A DNA stretch of 6,061 nt from an uncultured Gammaproteobacteria bacterium (GTDB taxonomy: Bacteria; Patescibacteriota; Microgenomatia; Daviesbacterales; UBA10151), in assembly GCA_964522265.1 (NCBI GenBank), contig CAZFVS010000066.1:1-6061 (forward strand), given 5' to 3'. The position numbers and the translations under genes were made by a program. The first letter of the stretch is position 1; the number at the start of each line of letters is the position of its first letter. Positions 1 through 6,061 of this stretch are shown here, in pieces. The notes under the pieces were generated by a model that was not told the origin of the DNA, made no database searches, and saw only the letters and a program-made list of their open reading frames with translations.

Positions 1-16
1 TGATTAGAAAGTCAAA
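1..16 (-). repeat. Copy 1 of a 16-nt direct repeat that reads as a -35-like TTGACT on the minus strand
   Basis: TGATTAGAAAGTCAAA (1-16) matches GGATTTGAAAGTCAAA (137-152) at 14/16 positions. The 10-nt core GAAAGTCAAA is identical (7-16 and 143-152). The reverse complement contains TTGACT (15->10), facing leftward out of the window. Confidence 0.5.
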
Positions 17-31
17 TAATAAATACCTCCG

Positions 32-102
32 TGGACCGGACGGGAGTCGAACCCGCATTTTCTACTTGAGGGGTAGTTGGTCTGCCGTTAACCTACCGGC
101 TC
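32..102 (-). tRNA. tRNA-like gene, 71 nt, anticodon loop CCCUCAA (anticodon CUC = Glu under standard numbering); atypical at several conserved positions
   Basis: The reverse complement of 32-102 folds as a cloverleaf. Acceptor GAGCCGG/CCGGTCC; U8; D arm GGTT-AACGGCA-GACC (A14, G18G19, A21 present); anticodon arm ACTAC-CCCTCAA-GTAGA; 4-nt variable loop AAAT; T arm GCGGG-TTCGACT-CCCGT (canonical T54 T55 C56 R57 A58); discriminator A. No CCA is encoded. Deviations: A2.C71 mismatch, A27.A43 mismatch, and C instead of U at position 33. Confidence 0.6.
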
Positions 103-121
103 AATTCACGGAGGCTGGTGG

Positions 122-151
122 ATTATTACAAAGTTTGGATTTGAAAGTCAA
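122..151 (-). promoter_or_regulatory. Candidate sigma70-type promoter for the tRNA-like gene
   Basis: On the minus strand: TTGACT (151->146), 18-nt spacer, then TGT-AATAAT (130->122), an extended -10 with a 5/6 hexamer. The predicted start is near 115, about 13 nt upstream of the tRNA 5' end and at the first base of the leader helix CCUCCGUG. Confidence 0.45.
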
Positions 152-152
152 A
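137..152 (-). repeat. Copy 2 of the 16-nt direct repeat; contains the -35 of the tRNA promoter
   Basis: GGATTTGAAAGTCAAA matches 1-16 at 14/16. It also contains the small palindrome TTTGA-aag-TCAAA, which reads TTGAAA on plus and TTGACT on minus. Confidence 0.5.
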
Positions 153-177
153 ACGAAAGAAAAGATTAGGAGCGAGC

Positions 178-1188
178 ATGAGTAACCAAATGATTAATCA
201 AAAAGCATGCTTAAATCCTAAACTATTTGATAAGGATATTGAGCAGGTGCCTTCCAGGATGGGGTTTGGGGAGGGGCTGGTTTTGGCAGGGGAGGAGAAC
301 CCTAATGTTGTTGGTCTTTGTGCGGATCTGACAGGTTCTACCAAGATGGACGCCTTTGCCAAAAAATTCCCTGAAAGATTTGTGCAGATCGGCGTGGCGG
401 AACAAAATTTAGCAACTGTAGCTTCAGGTATGTCAGCAGCAGGCAAAATCCCCTTTATATCCTCTTATGCCATGTTTTCCCCTGGACGAAACTGGGAGCA
501 GATCCGCACAACTGTCTGTTACAACAACCAGCCTGTAAAAATTATCGGTTCACATGCCGGAATTTCAGTGGGGCCTGACGGTGCAACTCACCAGGCCCTG
601 GAGGATATGGCAATTACCAGGGTAATTCCTAATATGGTAGTGATTGCGCCATGTGACACCATTGAAGCCAGGAAAGCTACACAAGCTGTGGCACGCACCA
701 AAGAGCCTTCTTACATCAGGTTGTCCCGCGAAAAAGTTCCGGTTGTGACAACCCAGCAGACCCCATTTGAGATTGGTAAAGCCCAGGTTTTTTATGAAGG
801 TAAAGACGTTACAGTCATTGGATGCGGGCAGATGGTTTACCGCGCGCTTTTGGCGGCTAAAAAACTTGCCGAACCTGAGAAAGGTAAAATAAGTGTTCGA
901 GTAATAAATTGCCACACAATTAAGCCTTTGGAAAAGAAAACCATCGTGCAAGCTGTGGAAGAAACCGGGGCAATAGTCACTGTTGAAGAGCATCAGGCTG
1001 CTGGGGGGTTGGGGTCGGCTGTGGCGGAACTTGTTTCCCAAAATTACCCTGTACCTATAAAAATTGTAGGAATTGAAGACCATTTTGGAGAATCAGGTGA
1101 ACCTGATGAACTGTTGGAAAAATTCGGGCTGACGGTGGAAGCGATCATTAAAGCAGTTACACACGTTCTTCGGTTAAAAAATAAGTAA
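178..1188 (+). CDS. Transketolase, C-terminal subunit of a split (two-polypeptide) transketolase: pyrimidine-binding plus C-terminal domains
   Basis: 336-aa ORF with AGGAG (168-172) 5 nt upstream of the ATG. Motifs match the transketolase/DXS pyrimidine-binding domain (FVQIGVAEQNLATVASGMS, GSHAGISVGPDGATHQALEDMAITRVIPNM), followed by a C-terminal domain (VINCHTIKPLEKK..., VEEHQAAGGLGSAV). The length fits the C-terminal half alone, and no TPP-binding N-terminal domain is present. Confidence 0.9.
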   Translation: MSNQMINQKACLNPKLFDKDIEQVPSRMGFGEGLVLAGEENPNVVGLCADLTGSTKMDAFAKKFPERFVQIGVAEQNLATVASGMSAAGKIPFISSYAMFSPGRNWEQIRTTVCYNNQPVKIIGSHAGISVGPDGATHQALEDMAITRVIPNMVVIAPCDTIEARKATQAVARTKEPSYIRLSREKVPVVTTQQTPFEIGKAQVFYEGKDVTVIGCGQMVYRALLAAKKLAEPEKGKISVRVINCHTIKPLEKKTIVQAVEETGAIVTVEEHQAAGGLGSAVAELVSQNYPVPIKIVGIEDHFGESGEPDELLEKFGLTVEAIIKAVTHVLRLKNK

Positions 1189-1458
1189 CTAATCAGGAAC
1201 TCCGCGTTTTTTGCCTTTCTCCACTAAAAACAGAAGATGATCCAGATCCAATTTGTGCCTGAAATTTTCCTCCAATATCTCATCAAGGCTTTGGTATGTA
1301 GGGGTTTCGTCTACCCGCACCCAAACAGCCTGTTTGTCGGGGTCAACAAAAACGATTTTTCGCTCACTCTCTGGCATAAATGTTTTATAGCCTATGCGGT
1401 AAATGGTTGTCAATAGCGGAATATTGACTTTTGGTATATAATGTTTATATCCCCCCAT
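1189..1458 (-). CDS. Small hypothetical protein (89 aa maximal ORF; a 62-aa version starting at ATG 1377 is at least as likely)
   Basis: This is the only long ORF filling the 270-nt gap between tkt and the copper operon. Its TAG stop (1191->1189) directly abuts the tkt TAA (1186-1188). The internal Met at 1377 lies 6 nt downstream of a good minus-strand promoter (TTGACA-18-TATAAA). The acidic C-terminal half has no motif I recognise. Confidence 0.45.
   Translation of the reverse strand: MGGYKHYIPKVNIPLLTTIYRIGYKTFMPESERKIVFVDPDKQAVWVRVDETPTYQSLDEILEENFRHKLDLDHLLFLVEKGKKRGVPD
1384..1413 (-). promoter_or_regulatory. Candidate sigma70-type promoter giving a leaderless transcript for the small minus-strand ORF
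   Basis: On the minus strand: perfect TTGACA (1413->1408), 18-nt spacer, TATAAA (1389->1384), then 6 nt (ACATTT), then ATG at 1377->1375. No Shine-Dalgarno sequence is present in between. Confidence 0.45.
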
Positions 1459-1470
1459 AGGGGATATAAT
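1432..1470 (+). promoter_or_regulatory. Promoter region of the copper operon with two consensus -10 hexamers
   Basis: TATAAT occurs at 1437-1442, preceded by TGG-TATATA (1432-1440), which is extended -10-like. A second TATAAT at 1465-1470 lies 7 nt before ATG 1478, so it would give a leaderless or 1-nt-leader mRNA. There is no Shine-Dalgarno sequence before 1478. No convincing -35 is present at 17 bp for either hexamer. Confidence 0.4.
1445..1469. promoter_or_regulatory. Perfect 10-bp inverted repeat TTATATCCCC-ccata-GGGGATATAA; candidate CsoR operator of the copper operon
   Basis: Arms 1445-1454 and 1460-1469 are exact reverse complements separated by a 5-nt spacer. The layout (C4/G4 tracts inside AT-rich flanks) is the style of known CsoR operators. 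It overlaps the TATAAT at 1465-1470 and lies 9 nt upstream of the first operon ATG. A CsoR with the full Cu(I) ligand set is encoded at 3804-4073. Confidence 0.55.
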
Positions 1471-1477
1471 CTAGTTT

Positions 1478-1987
1478 ATGAATGAAAAAAAGTTGATTAT
1501 TGGGTTTATTGCAGCAACAATCCTTCTTTTGGGCGGAAGTGTGGTGTTTGTGAGCAGTTCATCGGCTCCTAAAGCTATTCAAATCTCACAAAACGCCAAA
1601 GTTGAAACCCCTGAAACCTCATTTGATTGGGGCGAAATTAAATACGACGGCCCCAAAGCTACAAAAACATTTAAAATTAAAAATGCCGGTTCCGACAGCC
1701 TGCAGCTGACAAAAGTAAAAACATCCTGTACCTGTACTACAGCTCAGGTAGTTATTAATCCTAGTGACCCTAATGCGAAAAGAAGCCCTATTTTCAGTAT
1801 GCATGCTGCCGCTGACTGGTTAGGTGAGGTTCCTCCGGGGCAGGAGGCAGATTTGGTGGTAATATTTGACCAGTCATTCCATGGGCCCTCGGGGGTTGGT
1901 TCTATAGAAAGATTAATTTCAGTGGAAACAAATGATGCAAAAAGTCCAAAACTTGAGTTTACACTAAAAGGCAATGTTGTCAAATGA
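1478..1987 (+). CDS. Signal-anchored DUF1573-type protein (Ig-like fold family) with a CxC motif
   Basis: 169 aa. The N-terminus is MNEKK followed by a hydrophobic helix and then SSSSAPKA, consistent with N-in/C-out topology or a cleavable signal. The core FDWGEIKYDGPKATKTFKIKNAGSDSLQLTKVKTSCTCT matches the DUF1573 signature (FDFG.I..G......F.F.N.G...L.I..V..SCGCT). Cys84 and Cys86 are at 1727-1735. The stop overlaps the next start (ATGA, 1984-1987). Confidence 0.85.
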   Translation: MNEKKLIIGFIAATILLLGGSVVFVSSSSAPKAIQISQNAKVETPETSFDWGEIKYDGPKATKTFKIKNAGSDSLQLTKVKTSCTCTTAQVVINPSDPNAKRSPIFSMHAAADWLGEVPPGQEADLVVIFDQSFHGPSGVGSIERLISVETNDAKSPKLEFTLKGNVVK

Positions 1988-2964
1988 AAAGAAAATTAAA
2001 AAAAATTTTAAAGCGGGCAATACCGCTGTGGATGGTCATAATACTTATACTGGATGCTTCCATGCTGGTTGGAATTTCGGAATATGTTTTGATGAAAAAA
2101 CAGCTCAGTCAAGCTGTTTTAAGTCTTTCTAAAATCACTGATTCTGACGGATTGATCCAGATCCTGAAACAGGAAGTTATCCCCGCCGGTGGATACACAG
2201 CCTCAGTTAAATGGAAAAATTTAGGCCAACAGTTGGTGGAAGCGGGTGCAATTGATGAGGAAAAATACCGGGAGATTTTCAGCGGCGACGAGATGAAATA
2301 TTTAAACGGAAGTTATGATGAAAATATTAAAATTAACGAGAAGAACTCACGTTTTTTAGTTAACACTTTCTGGGCGTTGGGTTTGGTAAACAAGTCAAGA
2401 GTGTTAGACGCAGGCCCGATGAAAAGTGAGGGTATAGAGACAGGTAATATGGCTTCAACAGGCGGTTGGACACTGGGCAAACTGCAACCAATGGAACTTT
2501 ATTCCTCAAAAGAATTGATTAAACTTACCGACCAGCAGCAGGAACTGGTTAAAAAAATAGCCCAAAATATCTACCGACCCTGTTGTGACAACAGCACCTA
2601 TTTTCCGGACTGCAACCACGGTATGGCTGTTTTGGGTTATATAGAGTATGCAGTTTCGGAAGGGCTTTCAGAAAATCAAATCTATAAGGATATCCTGGCG
2701 CTTAATTCTTACTGGTTTCCTCAGAATTATTTGGATATGGTGGAATATTTTAACCGCGATCTTTTTAAAACAAAACCCCAAACGCTTGCACAAAAAATCC
2801 TCAAGTTTGGCGCTGATCCCAAAAAAGATATTAAATGGTCCAGCCTTGATCCCAAAGTTTTGTTGTCCAAAGAGTATTCTTCTGCGGGTGGTGCGAAAAA
2901 GATCCAAAAAGAGGTAGAGGATATTAAGGGGTCTCCGATCCAGGGGGGAGGGTGCAGCGCTTAA
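1984..2964 (+). CDS. Membrane-anchored extracytoplasmic protein of unassigned family with a CC-x8-C-x-H motif
   Basis: 326 aa. A very basic N-terminus (MKRKLKKILKR) and one TM helix predict N-in/C-out topology with a roughly 285-aa outside domain. The conserved-looking block is GNMASTGGWTLG ... IYRPCCDNSTYFPDCNHGMAVLGY (Cys200-Cys201 at 2581-2586; Cys210 and His212 at 2611-2619). The C-terminal tail is QGGGCSA. It is coupled by ATGA upstream and TAATG downstream. I recognise no Pfam family. Confidence 0.8.
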   Translation: MKRKLKKILKRAIPLWMVIILILDASMLVGISEYVLMKKQLSQAVLSLSKITDSDGLIQILKQEVIPAGGYTASVKWKNLGQQLVEAGAIDEEKYREIFSGDEMKYLNGSYDENIKINEKNSRFLVNTFWALGLVNKSRVLDAGPMKSEGIETGNMASTGGWTLGKLQPMELYSSKELIKLTDQQQELVKKIAQNIYRPCCDNSTYFPDCNHGMAVLGYIEYAVSEGLSENQIYKDILALNSYWFPQNYLDMVEYFNRDLFKTKPQTLAQKILKFGADPKKDIKWSSLDPKVLLSKEYSSAGGAKKIQKEVEDIKGSPIQGGGCSA

Positions 2965-3797
2965 TGGAAAATATACTTTTTCAAACATCTCTTATTGCGG
3001 CATTTGTAGCAGGGATGGTGGCTTTATTTGCCCCATGCTGTATTACATTTCTTCTGCCAGCCTATTTGGGGAGTATTTTCAAAGAGAAAGAAAAAGTTTT
3101 ATTGATGACCATGGTTTTCGGCGCAGGCATTTTCGTTGTTTTACTGCCGGCGGTTTTGGGTGTAGCCTACATTTCAAAGTTTTTATTTGATAACCATGAT
3201 TTTGTATATATTTTAGGAGCTGTCATGATGATGACTGTTGCCGTCACGACATTTTTGGGACTGAAGCTTCCCATGCCCCACCTTCCGGGAGCTGATCGGC
3301 AAAAACATGATATTTTATCAATCTTTACCCTTGGCATATTTTCCGGGATTACCAGTGCCTGTTGTGCTCCTGTTTTGATCGGAATATTAACTTTAACATT
3401 TCTTTCACCCAGCTTTTTGGGTGCCATAATAATAGGGGGGATGTATGTATTGGGTATGGTTATGCCGCTTCTTTTGATCTCAATTTTTTTAGACGGCAAG
3501 ATGCCGGCTGTTTCAGTACTAAGGAAGTGTCTTTTTGAAATAAAAATTTTCGGAAAAAATTATGCTGTTTTAACTAGTAATTTAATTGCTTCCGTAATCT
3601 TCTTGTTTACCGGTTGGTTGATACTGCTTCTGACTCTGCAAGGAAAATTGGCGATGGGAAGCATACAAAAATATACCGCAACTATTACCAACGCTTTCAA
3701 TTATATAAACAGCTATACGGGGAATAATCTATTCATTAACATAGCATTTGTATTTTTGCTGGTGCTTTTGCTTTATAAAATAGGAAAAAAATTGTAA
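2964..3797 (+). CDS. CcdA/DsbD-family integral membrane protein (cytochrome c biogenesis-type thiol-disulfide transporter fold), variant with vicinal Cys pairs
   Basis: 277 aa from ATG 2964 (TAATG overlap with the upstream stop; GGAGG at 2947-2951). About 7 predicted TM helices. TM1 reads FAPCCITFLLPAYL, compared with CcdA SPCvlPLlP.Y. TM4 reads GITSACCAPVLIGIL, compared with CcdA tPCigPiLg. Both pseudo-symmetric halves therefore carry CC (3036-3041 and 3360-3365) where CcdA has a single Cys. Confidence 0.85.
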   Translation: MENILFQTSLIAAFVAGMVALFAPCCITFLLPAYLGSIFKEKEKVLLMTMVFGAGIFVVLLPAVLGVAYISKFLFDNHDFVYILGAVMMMTVAVTTFLGLKLPMPHLPGADRQKHDILSIFTLGIFSGITSACCAPVLIGILTLTFLSPSFLGAIIIGGMYVLGMVMPLLLISIFLDGKMPAVSVLRKCLFEIKIFGKNYAVLTSNLIASVIFLFTGWLILLLTLQGKLAMGSIQKYTATITNAFNYINSYTGNNLFINIAFVFLLVLLLYKIGKKL

Positions 3798-3803
3798 AAA
3801 AAT

Positions 3804-4073
3804 ATGGCATACAGACCTAAAGATTCTAAAGAGAGGACCTTGCACAGGCTTAAAATTGCCCAGGGCCATCTGAAAAAGGTGGTTAGTATGATGCAAAATG
3901 GCCAATATTGTATAGATATCCTGCATCAATCTAATGCAGTACAGCGGGCGCTCAAAGAAGCGGACAGTATGATTTTGGAAAACCATCTTAAAACCTGCGC
4001 AGCGGATGCTATTCAAAATGGTAGAAAAGAAGAGGCAATTTCTGAGATAATGAACGTGTTCAAAAAAAGTTAA
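3804..4073 (+). CDS. csoR: CsoR-family copper-sensing transcriptional repressor (CsoR/RcnR/FrmR, DUF156 fold)
   Basis: 89 aa. RLKIAQGHLKKVVSMMQNGQYCIDILHQSNAVQRALKEADSMILENHLKTC carries the family core. The x-C-H-C ligand fingerprint (Y-C ... H-x3-C) is diagnostic of Cu(I)-sensing CsoR rather than RcnR or FrmR. Confidence 0.92.
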   Translation: MAYRPKDSKERTLHRLKIAQGHLKKVVSMMQNGQYCIDILHQSNAVQRALKEADSMILENHLKTCAADAIQNGRKEEAISEIMNVFKKS

Positions 4074-4084
4074 GGAGGTGAAGA

Positions 4085-4354
4085 ATGATGTTAAAACCTT
4101 ACGCTTTTGCCAATGCCTTTACTGTGGTTAGCTTGGCAATTTATGCTATCTGCAGGATCTTATCTCTTTTGGCGCCGGAGTTCCTTTTCAATATTTCTAC
4201 GAGCTGGTTTCATACTTTCAGCCTGGCAAGTTTGAAAGGCACAATTCCTTTTGATTTGGGAATGTTTATTTTTGGGGCTGTAACCTTGAGTGTGTTGGTA
4301 TGGGTAACTGCATATGCGGGAGCGCTGCTTTACAACAGGTGGGCTAATGGATAA
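4085..4354 (+). CDS. Small 2-TM membrane protein, function unknown (possibly the DUF5676-like family seen next to metal ATPases; low-confidence family call)
   Basis: 89 aa with a strong RBS: AGGAGG (4073-4078) 6 nt before the ATG. Two hydrophobic helices (FTVVSLAIYAICRILSLLAP and LGMFIFGAVTLSVLVWVTAYAGALLY). The C-terminus is LLYNRWANG. It overlaps the next gene by 8 nt. Confidence 0.7.
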   Translation: MMLKPYAFANAFTVVSLAIYAICRILSLLAPEFLFNISTSWFHTFSLASLKGTIPFDLGMFIFGAVTLSVLVWVTAYAGALLYNRWANG

Positions 4355-4700
4355 AATTTTAGTCACCATTTTTGGTGTATTAGGAATAGTGTTTACCTAC
4401 TGGTTCTTTTTGATGAAAAAAGAAAGGGAGTTGGCGGTTAAAAATGAGGTAGATATTACTGTTGAAGGCGGTTACACACCGGATGTTATCTCAGTACCTT
4501 TGGGAAAGTTGACAAAAATCAATTTTTTCCGCAAAGACTCCTCGAGCTGTTTGGAAGAGGTGGTTTTAGGCGAATTCAAAATTCGAAAACAGCTGCCTTT
4601 GAATAAAAAAGTGACCGTTGAAATTATGCCGCAAAAAAGAGGAGAGTTTGTGTTTACCTGCGGCATGAACATGTTTCACGGAAAGGTGATAGTCAGATGA
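4347..4700 (+). CDS. Membrane-anchored cupredoxin-like domain protein (Cupredoxin_1-type, commonly encoded upstream of copA)
   Basis: 117 aa from ATG 4347 (AGGTGGG at 4337-4343; ATGGATAA overlap with the upstream gene). An N-terminal TM ([20 protein letters not shown]) is followed by a beta-rich domain: [34 protein letters not shown]...[18 protein letters not shown]. The C...C-G-M-x-M-x-H ligand pattern is typical of this family. The stop overlaps the copA start (ATGA). Confidence 0.8.
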
Positions 4701-6061
4701 AAAAAACCTACCCGGTGAAAGGGATGCACTGTGCATCATGCGTAAGACTGATTGAAAAAGCGTTGTCCAAAGTTGACGGTGTAGCATCCGCCAGCGTTAA
4801 CCTGGCGAGTGAAAAGGCAACGGTTGAATACAACTCCAAAGTTGCCAGCGAAGAAAAAATACAGTCTGCTGTTGCTGGTGTAGGATACCAGCTTATGATC
4901 AACGAGGAAATTAAATCGGAAGACGAAACAAAAATAGAAAAGGTAAAGGAGCTGAAAGATCTGCGCACAAAGGTGATGATCAGTTTGGTGTTGGGAGGGC
5001 TTATCCTTTGGGGTAGTTTTCCCGGTTTGGTACAGACGGCACCGGTTTTTTTACAAAACTTCTGGATGCAGTTTTTACTCGCAACACCGGTCCAATTTTG
5101 GGTCGGGTCTGCATTTTATAAAGCAGCCATCCCTGCGCTCAAACACAGAAGCGCCAATATGGATACTCTGGTTGCGATTGGTACTACAGTAGCTTACGGA
5201 TATTCTGCTTTTGTAACAATTTTTCCACAAGTGGTAAAAAATATCGGGATAGAACCGATGCCTTATTTTGATGTTGCAACCATAATAATCGGCCTGATCC
5301 TTTTGGGCAGGTATTTTGAAGCGAAGGCCAAAGCAGGTACATCTGAAGCAATTAAAAAACTGATAGGATTGCAGGCTAAAACGGCAAGAGTTTTGCGGGA
5401 TGGCAAAGAGTTGGATATACTGATTGACCAGGTTGTAATTGGGGATATCATCAGGGTCCGACCCGGAGAAAAGATACCTGTTGACGGTGTAATAACTTTA
5501 GGGGAGTCCAGTATCGACGAATCAATGATTACCGGGGAAAGCATTCCAGTGGATAAAACTAAAGGTGATAGTGTTGTCGGTGCAACGATCAACAAAACCG
5601 GCACATTCACCTACCGGGCTACCAAAGTTGGTAAGGATACGGTTTTAGCCCAAATTATTAAACTTGTGACTCAAGCCCAGGGATCAAAGGCACCAATCCA
5701 AAGGCTTGCGGATCTGATCTCATCATATTTTGTGCCGATCGTCATCATGCTTGCTATTTTCACTTTTGTGGTATGGTATGTATTTGGCCAGTCCCCAGCT
5801 TTGCTTTTTGCACTTTTAAACACTGTGGCGGTACTGATTATCGCCTGCCCCTGCGCTATGGGTTTGGCCACACCGACTGCAATTATGGTGGGGACCGGGA
5901 AAGGTGCAGAACACGGCATACTGATAAAAGATGCGGAAAGCCTAGAAACCGCCCATAAAATCAACACTATTATTTTTGACAAAACTGGAACATTAACTTA
6001 CGGTAAGCCTGTGGTTACGGATGTCGTTTCTATGGAATTGGATTCCCGCCTGCCTGCCGGT
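4697..6061 (+). CDS. copA: Copper-translocating P1B-type ATPase CopA, N-terminal 455 codons (3' end lies beyond the window)
   Basis: My own translation of frame 2 from ATG 4697 (AAGGTGA RBS at 4683-4689) runs to 6061 without a stop. It contains an HMA domain [15 protein letters not shown] (GMHCASC at 4721-4741), the actuator motif ITGES, the TM6 CPC motif ([13 protein letters not shown], 5846-5854) and the phosphorylation site DKTGTLT (5978-5998). Confidence 0.97.

Follow-up and report, generated by a model that had tools for sequence, protein, structure and literature searches.

A conserved Cys/His protein outside the thioredoxin fold in a predicted copper-responsive cassette of Patescibacteria

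What is the task of an exported protein that stands in the middle of a copper operon and matches no described family? The question is raised by contig CAZFVS010000066.1 (NCBI GenBank assembly GCA_964522265.1; GTDB lineage Patescibacteriota, Microgenomatia, Daviesbacterales, UBA10151), of which we analysed positions 1 to 6,061, hereafter the window. Between a gene for a DUF1573 protein and one for a homologue of the membrane protein CcdA, the forward strand encodes a protein of 326 amino acids (aa) that the original prediction had called the least explained gene of the operon. It still is, as Pfam, NCBIfam, PDB and Foldseek searches were all without a match. Across several phyla we found the gene in loci for copper homeostasis, with consistent ties to thiol chemistry, and its product probably acts on copper or in thiol redox reactions at the surface of the cell.

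The gene and the parts of its product that the argument relies on are the following.

1984-2964, + strand: gene for the 326-aa protein, a member of an unnamed family (open reading frame (ORF) calling, ATG start).
2017-2094, + strand: predicted single N-in transmembrane (TM) anchor, about aa 12-37 (sequence; a long helix in AlphaFold).
2179-2928, + strand: predicted globular, mostly alpha-helical extracytoplasmic domain, aa 66-315 (AlphaFold domain model).
2452-2469, + strand: conserved ASTGGW loop, aa 157-162 (A157, T159 and W162 invariant in a 40-sequence alignment).
2575-2628, + strand: signature block R198-P-C200-C201-x8-C210-N-H212-G-M-A215 (alignment of family representatives).
2761-2826, + strand: lineage-specific 22-aa insertion, L260-K281, outside the family core (predicted local distance difference test score (pLDDT) 55-63).
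2929-2961, + strand: predicted disordered C-terminal arm ending in QGGGC324SA (aa 321-326, pLDDT <50).

The N-terminus is basic, with seven Lys or Arg among the first 11 residues, and runs into a hydrophobic stretch at about aa 12-37. Sequence and model fit an N-in anchor with the remainder of the protein outside, which bears out the earlier claim that the protein is exported and anchored in this orientation. Its cysteines total four (C200, C201, C210 and C324), and no CxxC motif was found in the 326 residues. The Cys/His block, IYRPCCDNSTYFPDCNHGMAVLGY (aa 196-219), contains the signature segment R198-P-C-C-D-N-S-T-Y-F-P-D-C210-N-H212-G-M-A, with codons at 2581-2583 (C200), 2584-2586 (C201), 2611-2613 (C210) and 2617-2619 (H212). 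C324 (nucleotides (nt) 2953-2955) is the third residue from the C-terminal end. The ASTGGW loop lies within GNMASTGGWTLG (aa 154-165), and its S158 and G161 are also invariant in the closer alignments A1 and A3. The L260-K281 insertion is confined in alignment A1 to the window protein, its 81%-identical relative P0002 and P0037, in which it is longer.

Such proteins are numerous: a word-indexed sequence search with the window protein returned >4,647 clusters at 90% identity (E ≤ 1e-3), and an exhaustive profile search covering 1.84 billion representatives returned 565 clusters at 50% identity (E ≤ 1e-3), 226 of them at E ≤ 1e-30. A scan of one genome per GTDB species yielded at least 564 loci. 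The named sources are almost all Patescibacteria, the ultra-small bacteria of the candidate phyla radiation (CPR): Daviesbacteria, Levybacteria, Curtissbacteria, Collierbacteria, Beckwithbacteria, Chisholmbacteria, Amesbacteria, Roizmanbacteria, Blackburnbacteria, Woesebacteria, WWE3, Uhrbacteria, Andersenbacteria and Wolfebacteria. A divergent minority comes from non-CPR bacteria, including one Actinobacteria metagenome-assembled genome. The proteins are labelled "hypothetical" in every source, and none carries a precomputed Pfam domain.

Conservation was assessed on 150 representatives of the 50%-identity clusters, of which 145 cover the Cys/His block and 98 reach the C-terminus. The check proposed for the block gave a clear outcome: C200, C201 and C210 were present in 145/145 and H212 in 144/145, and C324 was present in 94/98. 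In the 40-sequence alignment, which has a mean column identity of 29%, the invariant residues were W130, A157, T159, W162, R198, P199, C200, C201, N203, D209, C210, N211, H212, G213, A215 and C324. As many invariant polar residues flank the cysteines, the alignment suggests a site that is active or binds a ligand, not one that simply staples the structure together. The window protein carries in full the signature that we propose for the family, R-P-C-C-x8-C-N-H-G with the ASTGGW loop and a GG(G/S)C-x2-COOH ending.

The original prediction had cautioned that the Gly-rich tail may be constrained by the ribosome-binding site (RBS) of the next gene, and the GGAGG of that site (2947-2951) does fall inside the Gly codons of the window tail. 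We rejected the tail as an RBS artefact because a GG(G/S)CG(A/V)-COOH ending, with Cys always third from the end, was found in 83/83 loci, and 29 of these lack a CcdA-like gene start within 60 nt. The caveat is also contradicted by the non-CPR members, in which the Cys tail is present, as it is in long forms of the family. In P0169 a related G-G-S-K-C is retained internally, just ahead of a C-terminal BNR domain.

AlphaFold modelled aa 56-326 with high scores (60-sequence alignment; pLDDT 90.5, predicted TM-score 0.89) and the full-length protein with a pLDDT of 80. The domain model is mainly alpha-helical with one two-stranded sheet. In it, the RPCC segment comes after helix 183-195, and C210 sits one residue ahead of a helix at aa 211-225 (DSSP on the model); a Cys placed just before a helix start favours a reactive thiolate. 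The last six residues, C324 among them, fall below a pLDDT of 50, which marks the C-terminal end as a flexible arm in the model.

Neither sequence nor fold led to a known family. Foldseek against the PDB gave no match with the full-length or the domain model (best E ~1, TM-score <0.2), and Pfam-A and NCBIfam scans returned no family at E ≤ 1. The same scans of 40 divergent members matched fused domains only and never the domain itself. Searching PDB sequences, both by single sequence and by profile, gave noise only (best E = 0.57), and in hhalign the family profile reached probabilities ≤0.6% with the DUF411, DsbA-like and DUF3105-like proteins encoded nearby. We found neither the family nor its cassette described in the searchable literature. 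The domain is unnamed and apparently new, and the system around it resembles known copper and thiol-redox pathways.

Two earlier statements on what the protein is not were upheld by these searches. It is not a thioredoxin fold: the thioredoxin-fold oxidoreductases (DsbA, DsbC, ResA, TlpA and ScsC) are recognised by a CxxC that is missing here, the model is helical, Foldseek against the PDB and the Pfam thioredoxin models gave no match, and hhalign against a neighbouring DsbA-like protein gave a probability of 0.6%. It also lies outside the known copper-protein families. For Sco/SenC there is no PF02630 match and no CxxxC, and the predicted fold differs; all that is shared is the N-terminal anchor and the Cys/His ligand type. 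For DUF411/CopG (CxCC, PF04214) there is no Pfam match, and hhalign of alignment A3 against the DUF411 protein of locus L087 gave 0.5%. CopC, CusF, PCuAC, cupredoxins and HMA/CopZ, which are beta-rich and carry Met/His or MxCxxC sites, gave no Pfam or NCBIfam match at E ≤ 1. The window protein is like DUF411/CopG and these families in having clustered Cys (and His) ligands within a copper operon, but it is predicted to be helical where they are beta-sandwich or ferredoxin-like.

The gene does not stand alone. Its neighbours in the window are the following.

1445-1469, strand not applicable: perfect 10+10 palindrome resembling a CsoR box, TTATATCCCC-N5-GGGGATATAA (0.01 chance matches expected).
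1478-1987, + strand: membrane-anchored DUF1573 (immunoglobulin (Ig)-like) partner with SCTCT, a CxC motif (Pfam DUF1573, E = 1.3e-14).
2964-3797, + strand: CcdA homologue, 277 aa (profile match to CcdA, PDB 5vkv, E = 1.3e-11).
3804-4073, + strand: CsoR copper-sensing repressor (Pfam Trns_repr_metal, E = 4e-23).
4085-4354, + strand: DUF5676 protein with two TM helices (Pfam).
4314-4700, true start probably ~4347, + strand: membrane-anchored Cupredoxin_1 protein (Pfam).
4697-6061, leaving the window, + strand: CopA-type P1B ATPase, N-terminal 455 aa, with the HMA motif GMHCASC.

All genes from 1478 on form a single co-directional block. The start codon of our gene (1984-1986) overlaps the DUF1573 stop codon (TGA, 1985-1987) as ATGA, and its TAA (2962-2964) overlaps the CcdA-like start (ATG, 2964-2966) as TAATG, so that the ORF is translationally coupled, as had been proposed, with the CxC protein before it and the CC-bearing, CcdA-like permease after it. 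The CcdA-like protein begins at ATG 2964 and not at the mechanical GTG 2952; its homologues begin MENxxFQTS and an orthologue is likewise 277 aa long. For the Cupredoxin_1 gene the mechanical start at 4314 is too early and MDKILV near 4347 is the probable one, the orthologue in locus L001 having 119 aa. The CopA orthologue in the same locus has HMA and E1-E2_ATPase domains.

Both partners carry invariant cysteines of their own. In the DUF1573 partner, C84 and C86 (C84-x-C86), M108 and H135 were invariant in 75 sequences. Selenocysteine forms of DUF1573, with UGC at the CxC motif, are on record (PMC9312934, PMC13188914). The CcdA homologue has two vicinal Cys pairs, C25-C26 (nt 3036-3041) and C133-C134 (nt 3360-3365); in the alignment to 5vkv, the canonical redox Cys of CcdA falls on the first Cys of PCC and of ACC, and both pairs (CC/CC) together with one His were invariant in 70/70. 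A CcdA encoded nearby and a Cys domain predicted on the outer face, two of the marks of a client or partner of CcdA/DsbD pathways, are both found here.

To determine how regularly these genes keep company, we took 80 species-level loci through six-frame ORF calling and phmmer with the window proteins; these are the loci closest to the query among at least 564, and the frequencies are upper estimates for the family. On the same strand and within 6 kilobases (kb), DUF1573 was present in 74 of the 80, the CcdA-like gene in 70, CopA in 55, CsoR in 53, DUF5676 in 37 and Cupredoxin_1 in 33. The immediate upstream gene was DUF1573 in 65/80 and the immediate downstream gene was CcdA-like in 56/80. The usual order is csoR-DUF1573-X-ccdA(-DUF5676-cupredoxin-copA), where X is the gene in question; the window and its closest relative are unlike this in having csoR after ccdA.

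The palindrome at 1445-1469 ends 9 nt before the ATG of DUF1573, the first gene of the cassette. In related loci the same palindrome with its G/C core recurs at the cassette head, as ATCCCC-N-GGGGAT or in the classical form ATACCC-N-GGGTAT; 19 such sites lie within 200 nt upstream of csoR and 5 upstream of DUF1573. The window CsoR aligns without gaps to M. tuberculosis CsoR (PDB 2hh7; residues 9-87 to 9-87) and keeps C36, H61, C65, Y35 and E81, which correspond to the Cu(I) ligands (C36, H61, C65) and second shell (Y35, E81) of that structure. A putative CsoR-type operator upstream and a CsoR predicted to be Cu(I)-competent, as expected of a CsoR regulon, are both found in the sequence. Given the palindrome and the retained ligand set, we predict that the cassette is derepressed by copper.

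Beyond the cassette of the window, the gene keeps to the same kind of company. In the non-CPR locus L089 it stands beside DsbD_TM, Cox11, DUF411, cytochrome c, Sco1, two Redoxins and a rhodanese; in L092 (non-CPR) it follows HMA, an HMA-DsbD_2-cupredoxin fusion and two DsbA-like genes; and in L090 (non-CPR) CopA and a cupredoxin lie 4 kb away. DUF411 is a neighbour in L087 as well as in L089. The CPR locus L056 forms a copper island in which genes for a multicopper oxidase, a Met-rich protein, a cupredoxin, CsoR and CopA are grouped, and L069 has the order CcdA(CC/CC)-Redoxin(CYPAC)-domain. The neighbourhood check thus shows homologues strongly associated with metal and thiol-redox genes, both in the 80 loci and outside the CPR. 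With no match to an unrelated family, a conserved block and this association, each of the three outcomes that the original prediction had named as damaging to it failed to appear.

As a separate observation, the CPR copper islands L001:15355-20284 and L056:4523-12629 also hold Penicillinase_R and Peptidase_M56 genes (BlaI/BlaR- or CopY-like), along with DUF3105, DsbA-like, a DsbD_2-Cupredoxin fusion, HMA, a multicopper oxidase and a Met-rich membrane protein.

Where the CC-type CcdA is lacking, the gene adjoins a different small polytopic protein, again with a Cys pair inside the membrane.

L068:6772-7769 and L078:6906-7472: CPLC protein with 4-5 TM helices.
L056 and L058: protein with CIAC and CDVC and 4 TM helices, adjoining a DsbA-like gene.
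L084:6597-7298 and L061:8911-9708: SfLAP-like CcdA with HPC/CSIPC.
L069:8945-9367: CC protein with 3 TM helices.

In L084, a long-form locus, a 52-aa ORF with CPHC (7337-7495) lies between the SfLAP-like CcdA and a second DUF1573.

About 35 of the retrieved family sequences are long forms (≥400 aa). Most of these (~450-550 aa) consist of a module with 4-5 TM helices and a 'GCPxCG' motif, then the anchor, then the domain (P0137, P0154, P0273, P0278, P0319 and P0366 are examples). The 'GCPxCG' lies within a TM helix, and a further Cys or CxxC follows past the last helix of the module. The module also occurs as a separate gene of ~170-195 aa (L056:6645-7157, L060:5750-6337, L069:9832-10377). It matched no Pfam family, VKOR and DsbB included, and could be a new DsbB/VKOR-like or Mer-like module. 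Other fusions are P0140, with a signal peptide, DsbC_N (38 bits against a cutoff of 25) and the domain; P0128, with a TM helix, a rhodanese and the domain; and P0169, with the domain and a BNR propeller, a gene for which is also part of the L089 cluster. The rhodanese belongs to an exported single-Cys subfamily (YC[KR][ST]GRMS) that recurs as a third partner in three settings: fused to DUF1573 (L059:8952-9665), fused to the domain (P0128) and as an adjacent gene (L089:9075-9497). In a comparison of architectures, the domain is in the position usually taken by a thioredoxin fold three times independently, namely behind DsbC_N, behind a 4-TM CxxC module with a linker TM, and downstream of CcdA with or without a Redoxin.

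Two lines, the copper loci with their predicted CsoR control and the consistent wiring to thiol chemistry, converge on the reading that we favour, to which we give a little short of an even chance: the protein would be a non-thioredoxin Cys3His/tail-Cys centre that a CcdA relay keeps reduced and that, during copper stress, binds Cu(I) or passes it on. The DUF1573 protein (CxC), our protein and the CC/CC variant of CcdA would form a copper-induced three-gene thiol cassette. Cu(I) would free CsoR from the palindrome, and the three proteins would be made along with CopA and the cupredoxin. We infer the electron flow and its direction, the copper binding and the individual roles of the cysteines as follows. 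The CcdA variant would move reducing equivalents from cytoplasmic thioredoxin across the membrane, and these would go on either directly, via a swinging Cys324, or via the CxC of DUF1573 (a Redoxin in one locus). The reactive centre would consist of Cys200-Cys201, Cys210 beside the helix start and His212, with Cys324 on its disordered Gly-rich arm as a fifth ligand or shuttle. Electron delivery would keep this centre reduced, and on the cell surface the reduced centre would bind Cu(I), either sequestering it or passing it on, much as TlpA keeps Sco reduced and ScsB/ScsC keep CueP reduced.

Both comparisons hold in part. As in TlpA-ScoI and CcdA-ResA, a CcdA homologue is encoded beside a membrane-anchored extracytoplasmic Cys/His protein, which is like Sco in its single N-terminal TM anchor and its Cys and His ligand set; the L089 member stands beside Sco1, Cox11, DsbD_TM and two Redoxins, and that of L069 after a CcdA-Redoxin pair. 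Unlike in those systems, the protein has no thioredoxin fold, CxxC or CxxxC and is predicted to have a helical fold without a PDB match, CcdA has vicinal Cys pairs, and the cassette is predicted to be under a copper-stress repressor; we also know of no cytochrome oxidase in its hosts. With Salmonella ScsB/ScsC-CueP the cassette would share copper-linked expression, a DsbD-family reductase and extracytoplasmic Cys proteins that need reduction; the differences are the thioredoxin fold of ScsC, the separate fold of CueP and the regulator, here CsoR. No relation of our protein to ScsC or CueP was found by sequence or structure.

Several points weigh against the favoured reading. That C200, C201, C210 and H212 form one shared site, and that the tail reaches it, is putative. 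The CC-x8-C-x-H arrangement, a Cys3His set, could also have a structural role, as a Zn site or as two disulfides. The vicinal cysteines of CcdA and the CPxC of the other partners are equally typical of soft-metal translocation (MerT/MerF, the CPC of P1B-ATPases), and for that reason metal, rather than electrons, may cross the membrane. Association frequencies may drop in members beyond the nearest 80 of at least 564 loci, and the long-form locus L086 has no copper genes nearby. Finally, some divergent non-CPR members carry RR signals resembling those of twin-arginine translocation (Tat) in place of the plain anchor (SRRRFS, SRRTFI, NRRLLL), and others have lipoprotein boxes (the members concerned are P0240, P0258 (L089:8001-8987), P0261, P0242 and P0512 (L092:6162-7172)). 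Tat-like export might mean folding or cofactor loading in the cytoplasm, and the signals hint at a cytoplasmically loaded cofactor that the model leaves unexplained. For the CPR forms, we judged an Fe-S or other cytoplasmically loaded cofactor unlikely because their anchor is a plain Sec-type one without RR.

A bolder version of the favoured reading is possible but distinctly more tentative. The family would be a new non-thioredoxin extracytoplasmic class with a fixed CC/C/H centre and a single swinging C-terminal Cys, docking on proteins with intramembrane Cys pairs (the CC/CC variant of CcdA or the new 4-TM CPxC module), and the partner may move Cu(I)-thiolate rather than, or besides, electrons. 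If that were true, the cassette would be a copper counterpart of the Mer relay on a CcdA scaffold, widespread in the CPR.

The rival that survives best, which we consider doubtful yet a real contender, does without copper binding: the protein would be a non-thioredoxin thiol-disulfide reductase or isomerase, powered by CcdA, that mends wrong disulfides made by copper, as DsbC and Scs do. Cysteines are mis-oxidised to disulfides in the presence of copper, and loss of dsbC makes cells sensitive to the metal. In the DsbC_N fusion the domain stands in for the DsbC catalytic domain, the gene adjoins CcdA, the long form resembles VKOR-thioredoxin proteins, C210 is predicted one residue before a helix, and the mobile tail Cys is like shuttle cysteines. 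P0140 is like DsbC/DsbG in its signal peptide and genuine DsbC_N dimerisation domain, but the catalytic thioredoxin domain is replaced, and most family members are anchored as monomers by a TM helix. The long forms are laid out like VKOR-thioredoxin and DsbB-DsbA fusions: a module of four TM helices with a CxxC inside the membrane comes first, a fifth TM serves as linker, and the extracytoplasmic domain follows. They differ in that no Pfam family matches their membrane module and their outer domain is unlike thioredoxin. What tells against a reductase or isomerase is that both H212, which is invariant and stands two positions past C210, and the Cys, Met and His of DUF1573 resemble metal ligands, and that the non-CPR members stand beside copper chaperones (Sco, Cox11, DUF411) and not beside general folding factors.

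Less probable is a relay of the Mer type, in which Cu(I) and not electrons would pass from the CxC of DUF1573 to the CC/C/H site, the tail Cys and the four intramembrane cysteines of the CcdA variant, or the CPxC of the 4-TM module, the membrane protein acting as a Cu(I) conduit. Vicinal Cys pairs in TM helices define the mercury importers MerT, MerC and MerF, and the LysE superfamily holds metal transporters as well as DsbD/CcdA. The extra second Cys beside each canonical CcdA Cys was invariant in all 70 sequences, and loci without a CC-type CcdA have small polytopic proteins with intramembrane CC, CPxC or CPLC next to the gene. The likeness extends to the small exported Cys partner of MerT/MerP and, in the tails of MerA, high-Mr thioredoxin reductase and Erv2, to a reactive Cys on a flexible arm near a fixed Cys centre; it stops short of homology. 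The tail has a single Cys where theirs has a pair, there is no flavin/NADPH domain, and copper is the implied metal. Importing copper under copper stress would also bring no obvious benefit when CopA already exports it, the partner is nearer to genuine CcdA (PF02683, 5vkv) than to the DsbD_2/UreH-like branch, and upstream of the gene in L069 stands a CcdA-Redoxin pair of the classical kind.

We regard as improbable that the Cys/His set is purely structural, as two disulfides or a Zn knuckle, and that it stabilises an extracytoplasmic enzyme or binding protein which acts through another site, such as a Trp-rich ASTGGW pocket. Such a pocket could draw on the invariant W130, A157, T159 and W162 outside the Cys block and on S158, N241 and W244 in the closer alignments A1 and A3, and the C-x8-C-x-H spacing recalls Zn modules; the Zn site of the copper fist is C-x2-C-x8-C-x-H. 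A disulfide, however, would need no dedicated CcdA and would not explain a flexible, invariant tail Cys, and the linkage to thiol-redox and copper genes across phyla, with the DsbC_N, rhodanese and CPxC fusions, favours active cysteine chemistry.

Least probable of all, by a small step, is that the exported rhodaneses point to the handling of sulfane sulfur (persulfide or polysulfide), with copper trapped as insoluble sulfide, for example, or reactive sulfur detoxified: one rhodanese subfamily is fused to the domain, fused to DUF1573 or adjacent, and CsoR-family regulators include the persulfide sensor CstR, but rhodanese is absent from the window and most loci, and the window regulator has the full Cu(I)-sensing C-H-C set and is not CstR-type. 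A Cys/His/Arg triad of the cysteine-protease or sortase type was an idea from the motif only, with no support from fold or family.

The gene marks the most conserved part of a copper-response locus of the CPR, a group that makes up a large share of bacterial diversity and whose surface biology is mostly unknown. All extracytoplasmic thiol-redox pathways known to us end in thioredoxin-fold or DsbD-alpha Ig-like domains. If the domain is redox-active or binds Cu(I), it adds another structural solution and would show that CcdA can serve partners that are not thioredoxins. The CC/CC variant of CcdA poses the question of whether an electron transporter now conducts soft metals instead of, or in addition to, electrons. 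Thousands of "hypothetical" proteins would gain an annotation once the family is defined, and copper biochemistry would gain a compact Cys3His and tail-Cys module.

Upstream of the cassette, the window holds three further features.

31-102, - strand: tRNA-Glu, anticodon CTC, at the left edge of the contig.
178-1188, + strand: gene for the C-terminal half of transketolase.
1189-1458, - strand: 89-aa ORF without a Pfam or NCBIfam match.

The 89-aa ORF fills an insertion of ~200 nt between the transketolase gene and the cassette, and its ATG falls within the loop of the CsoR-box palindrome. We considered both a real gene (small mobile or toxin-like) and a chance ORF; it is absent from all 88 related loci, and the closest relative has only 87 nt in its place.

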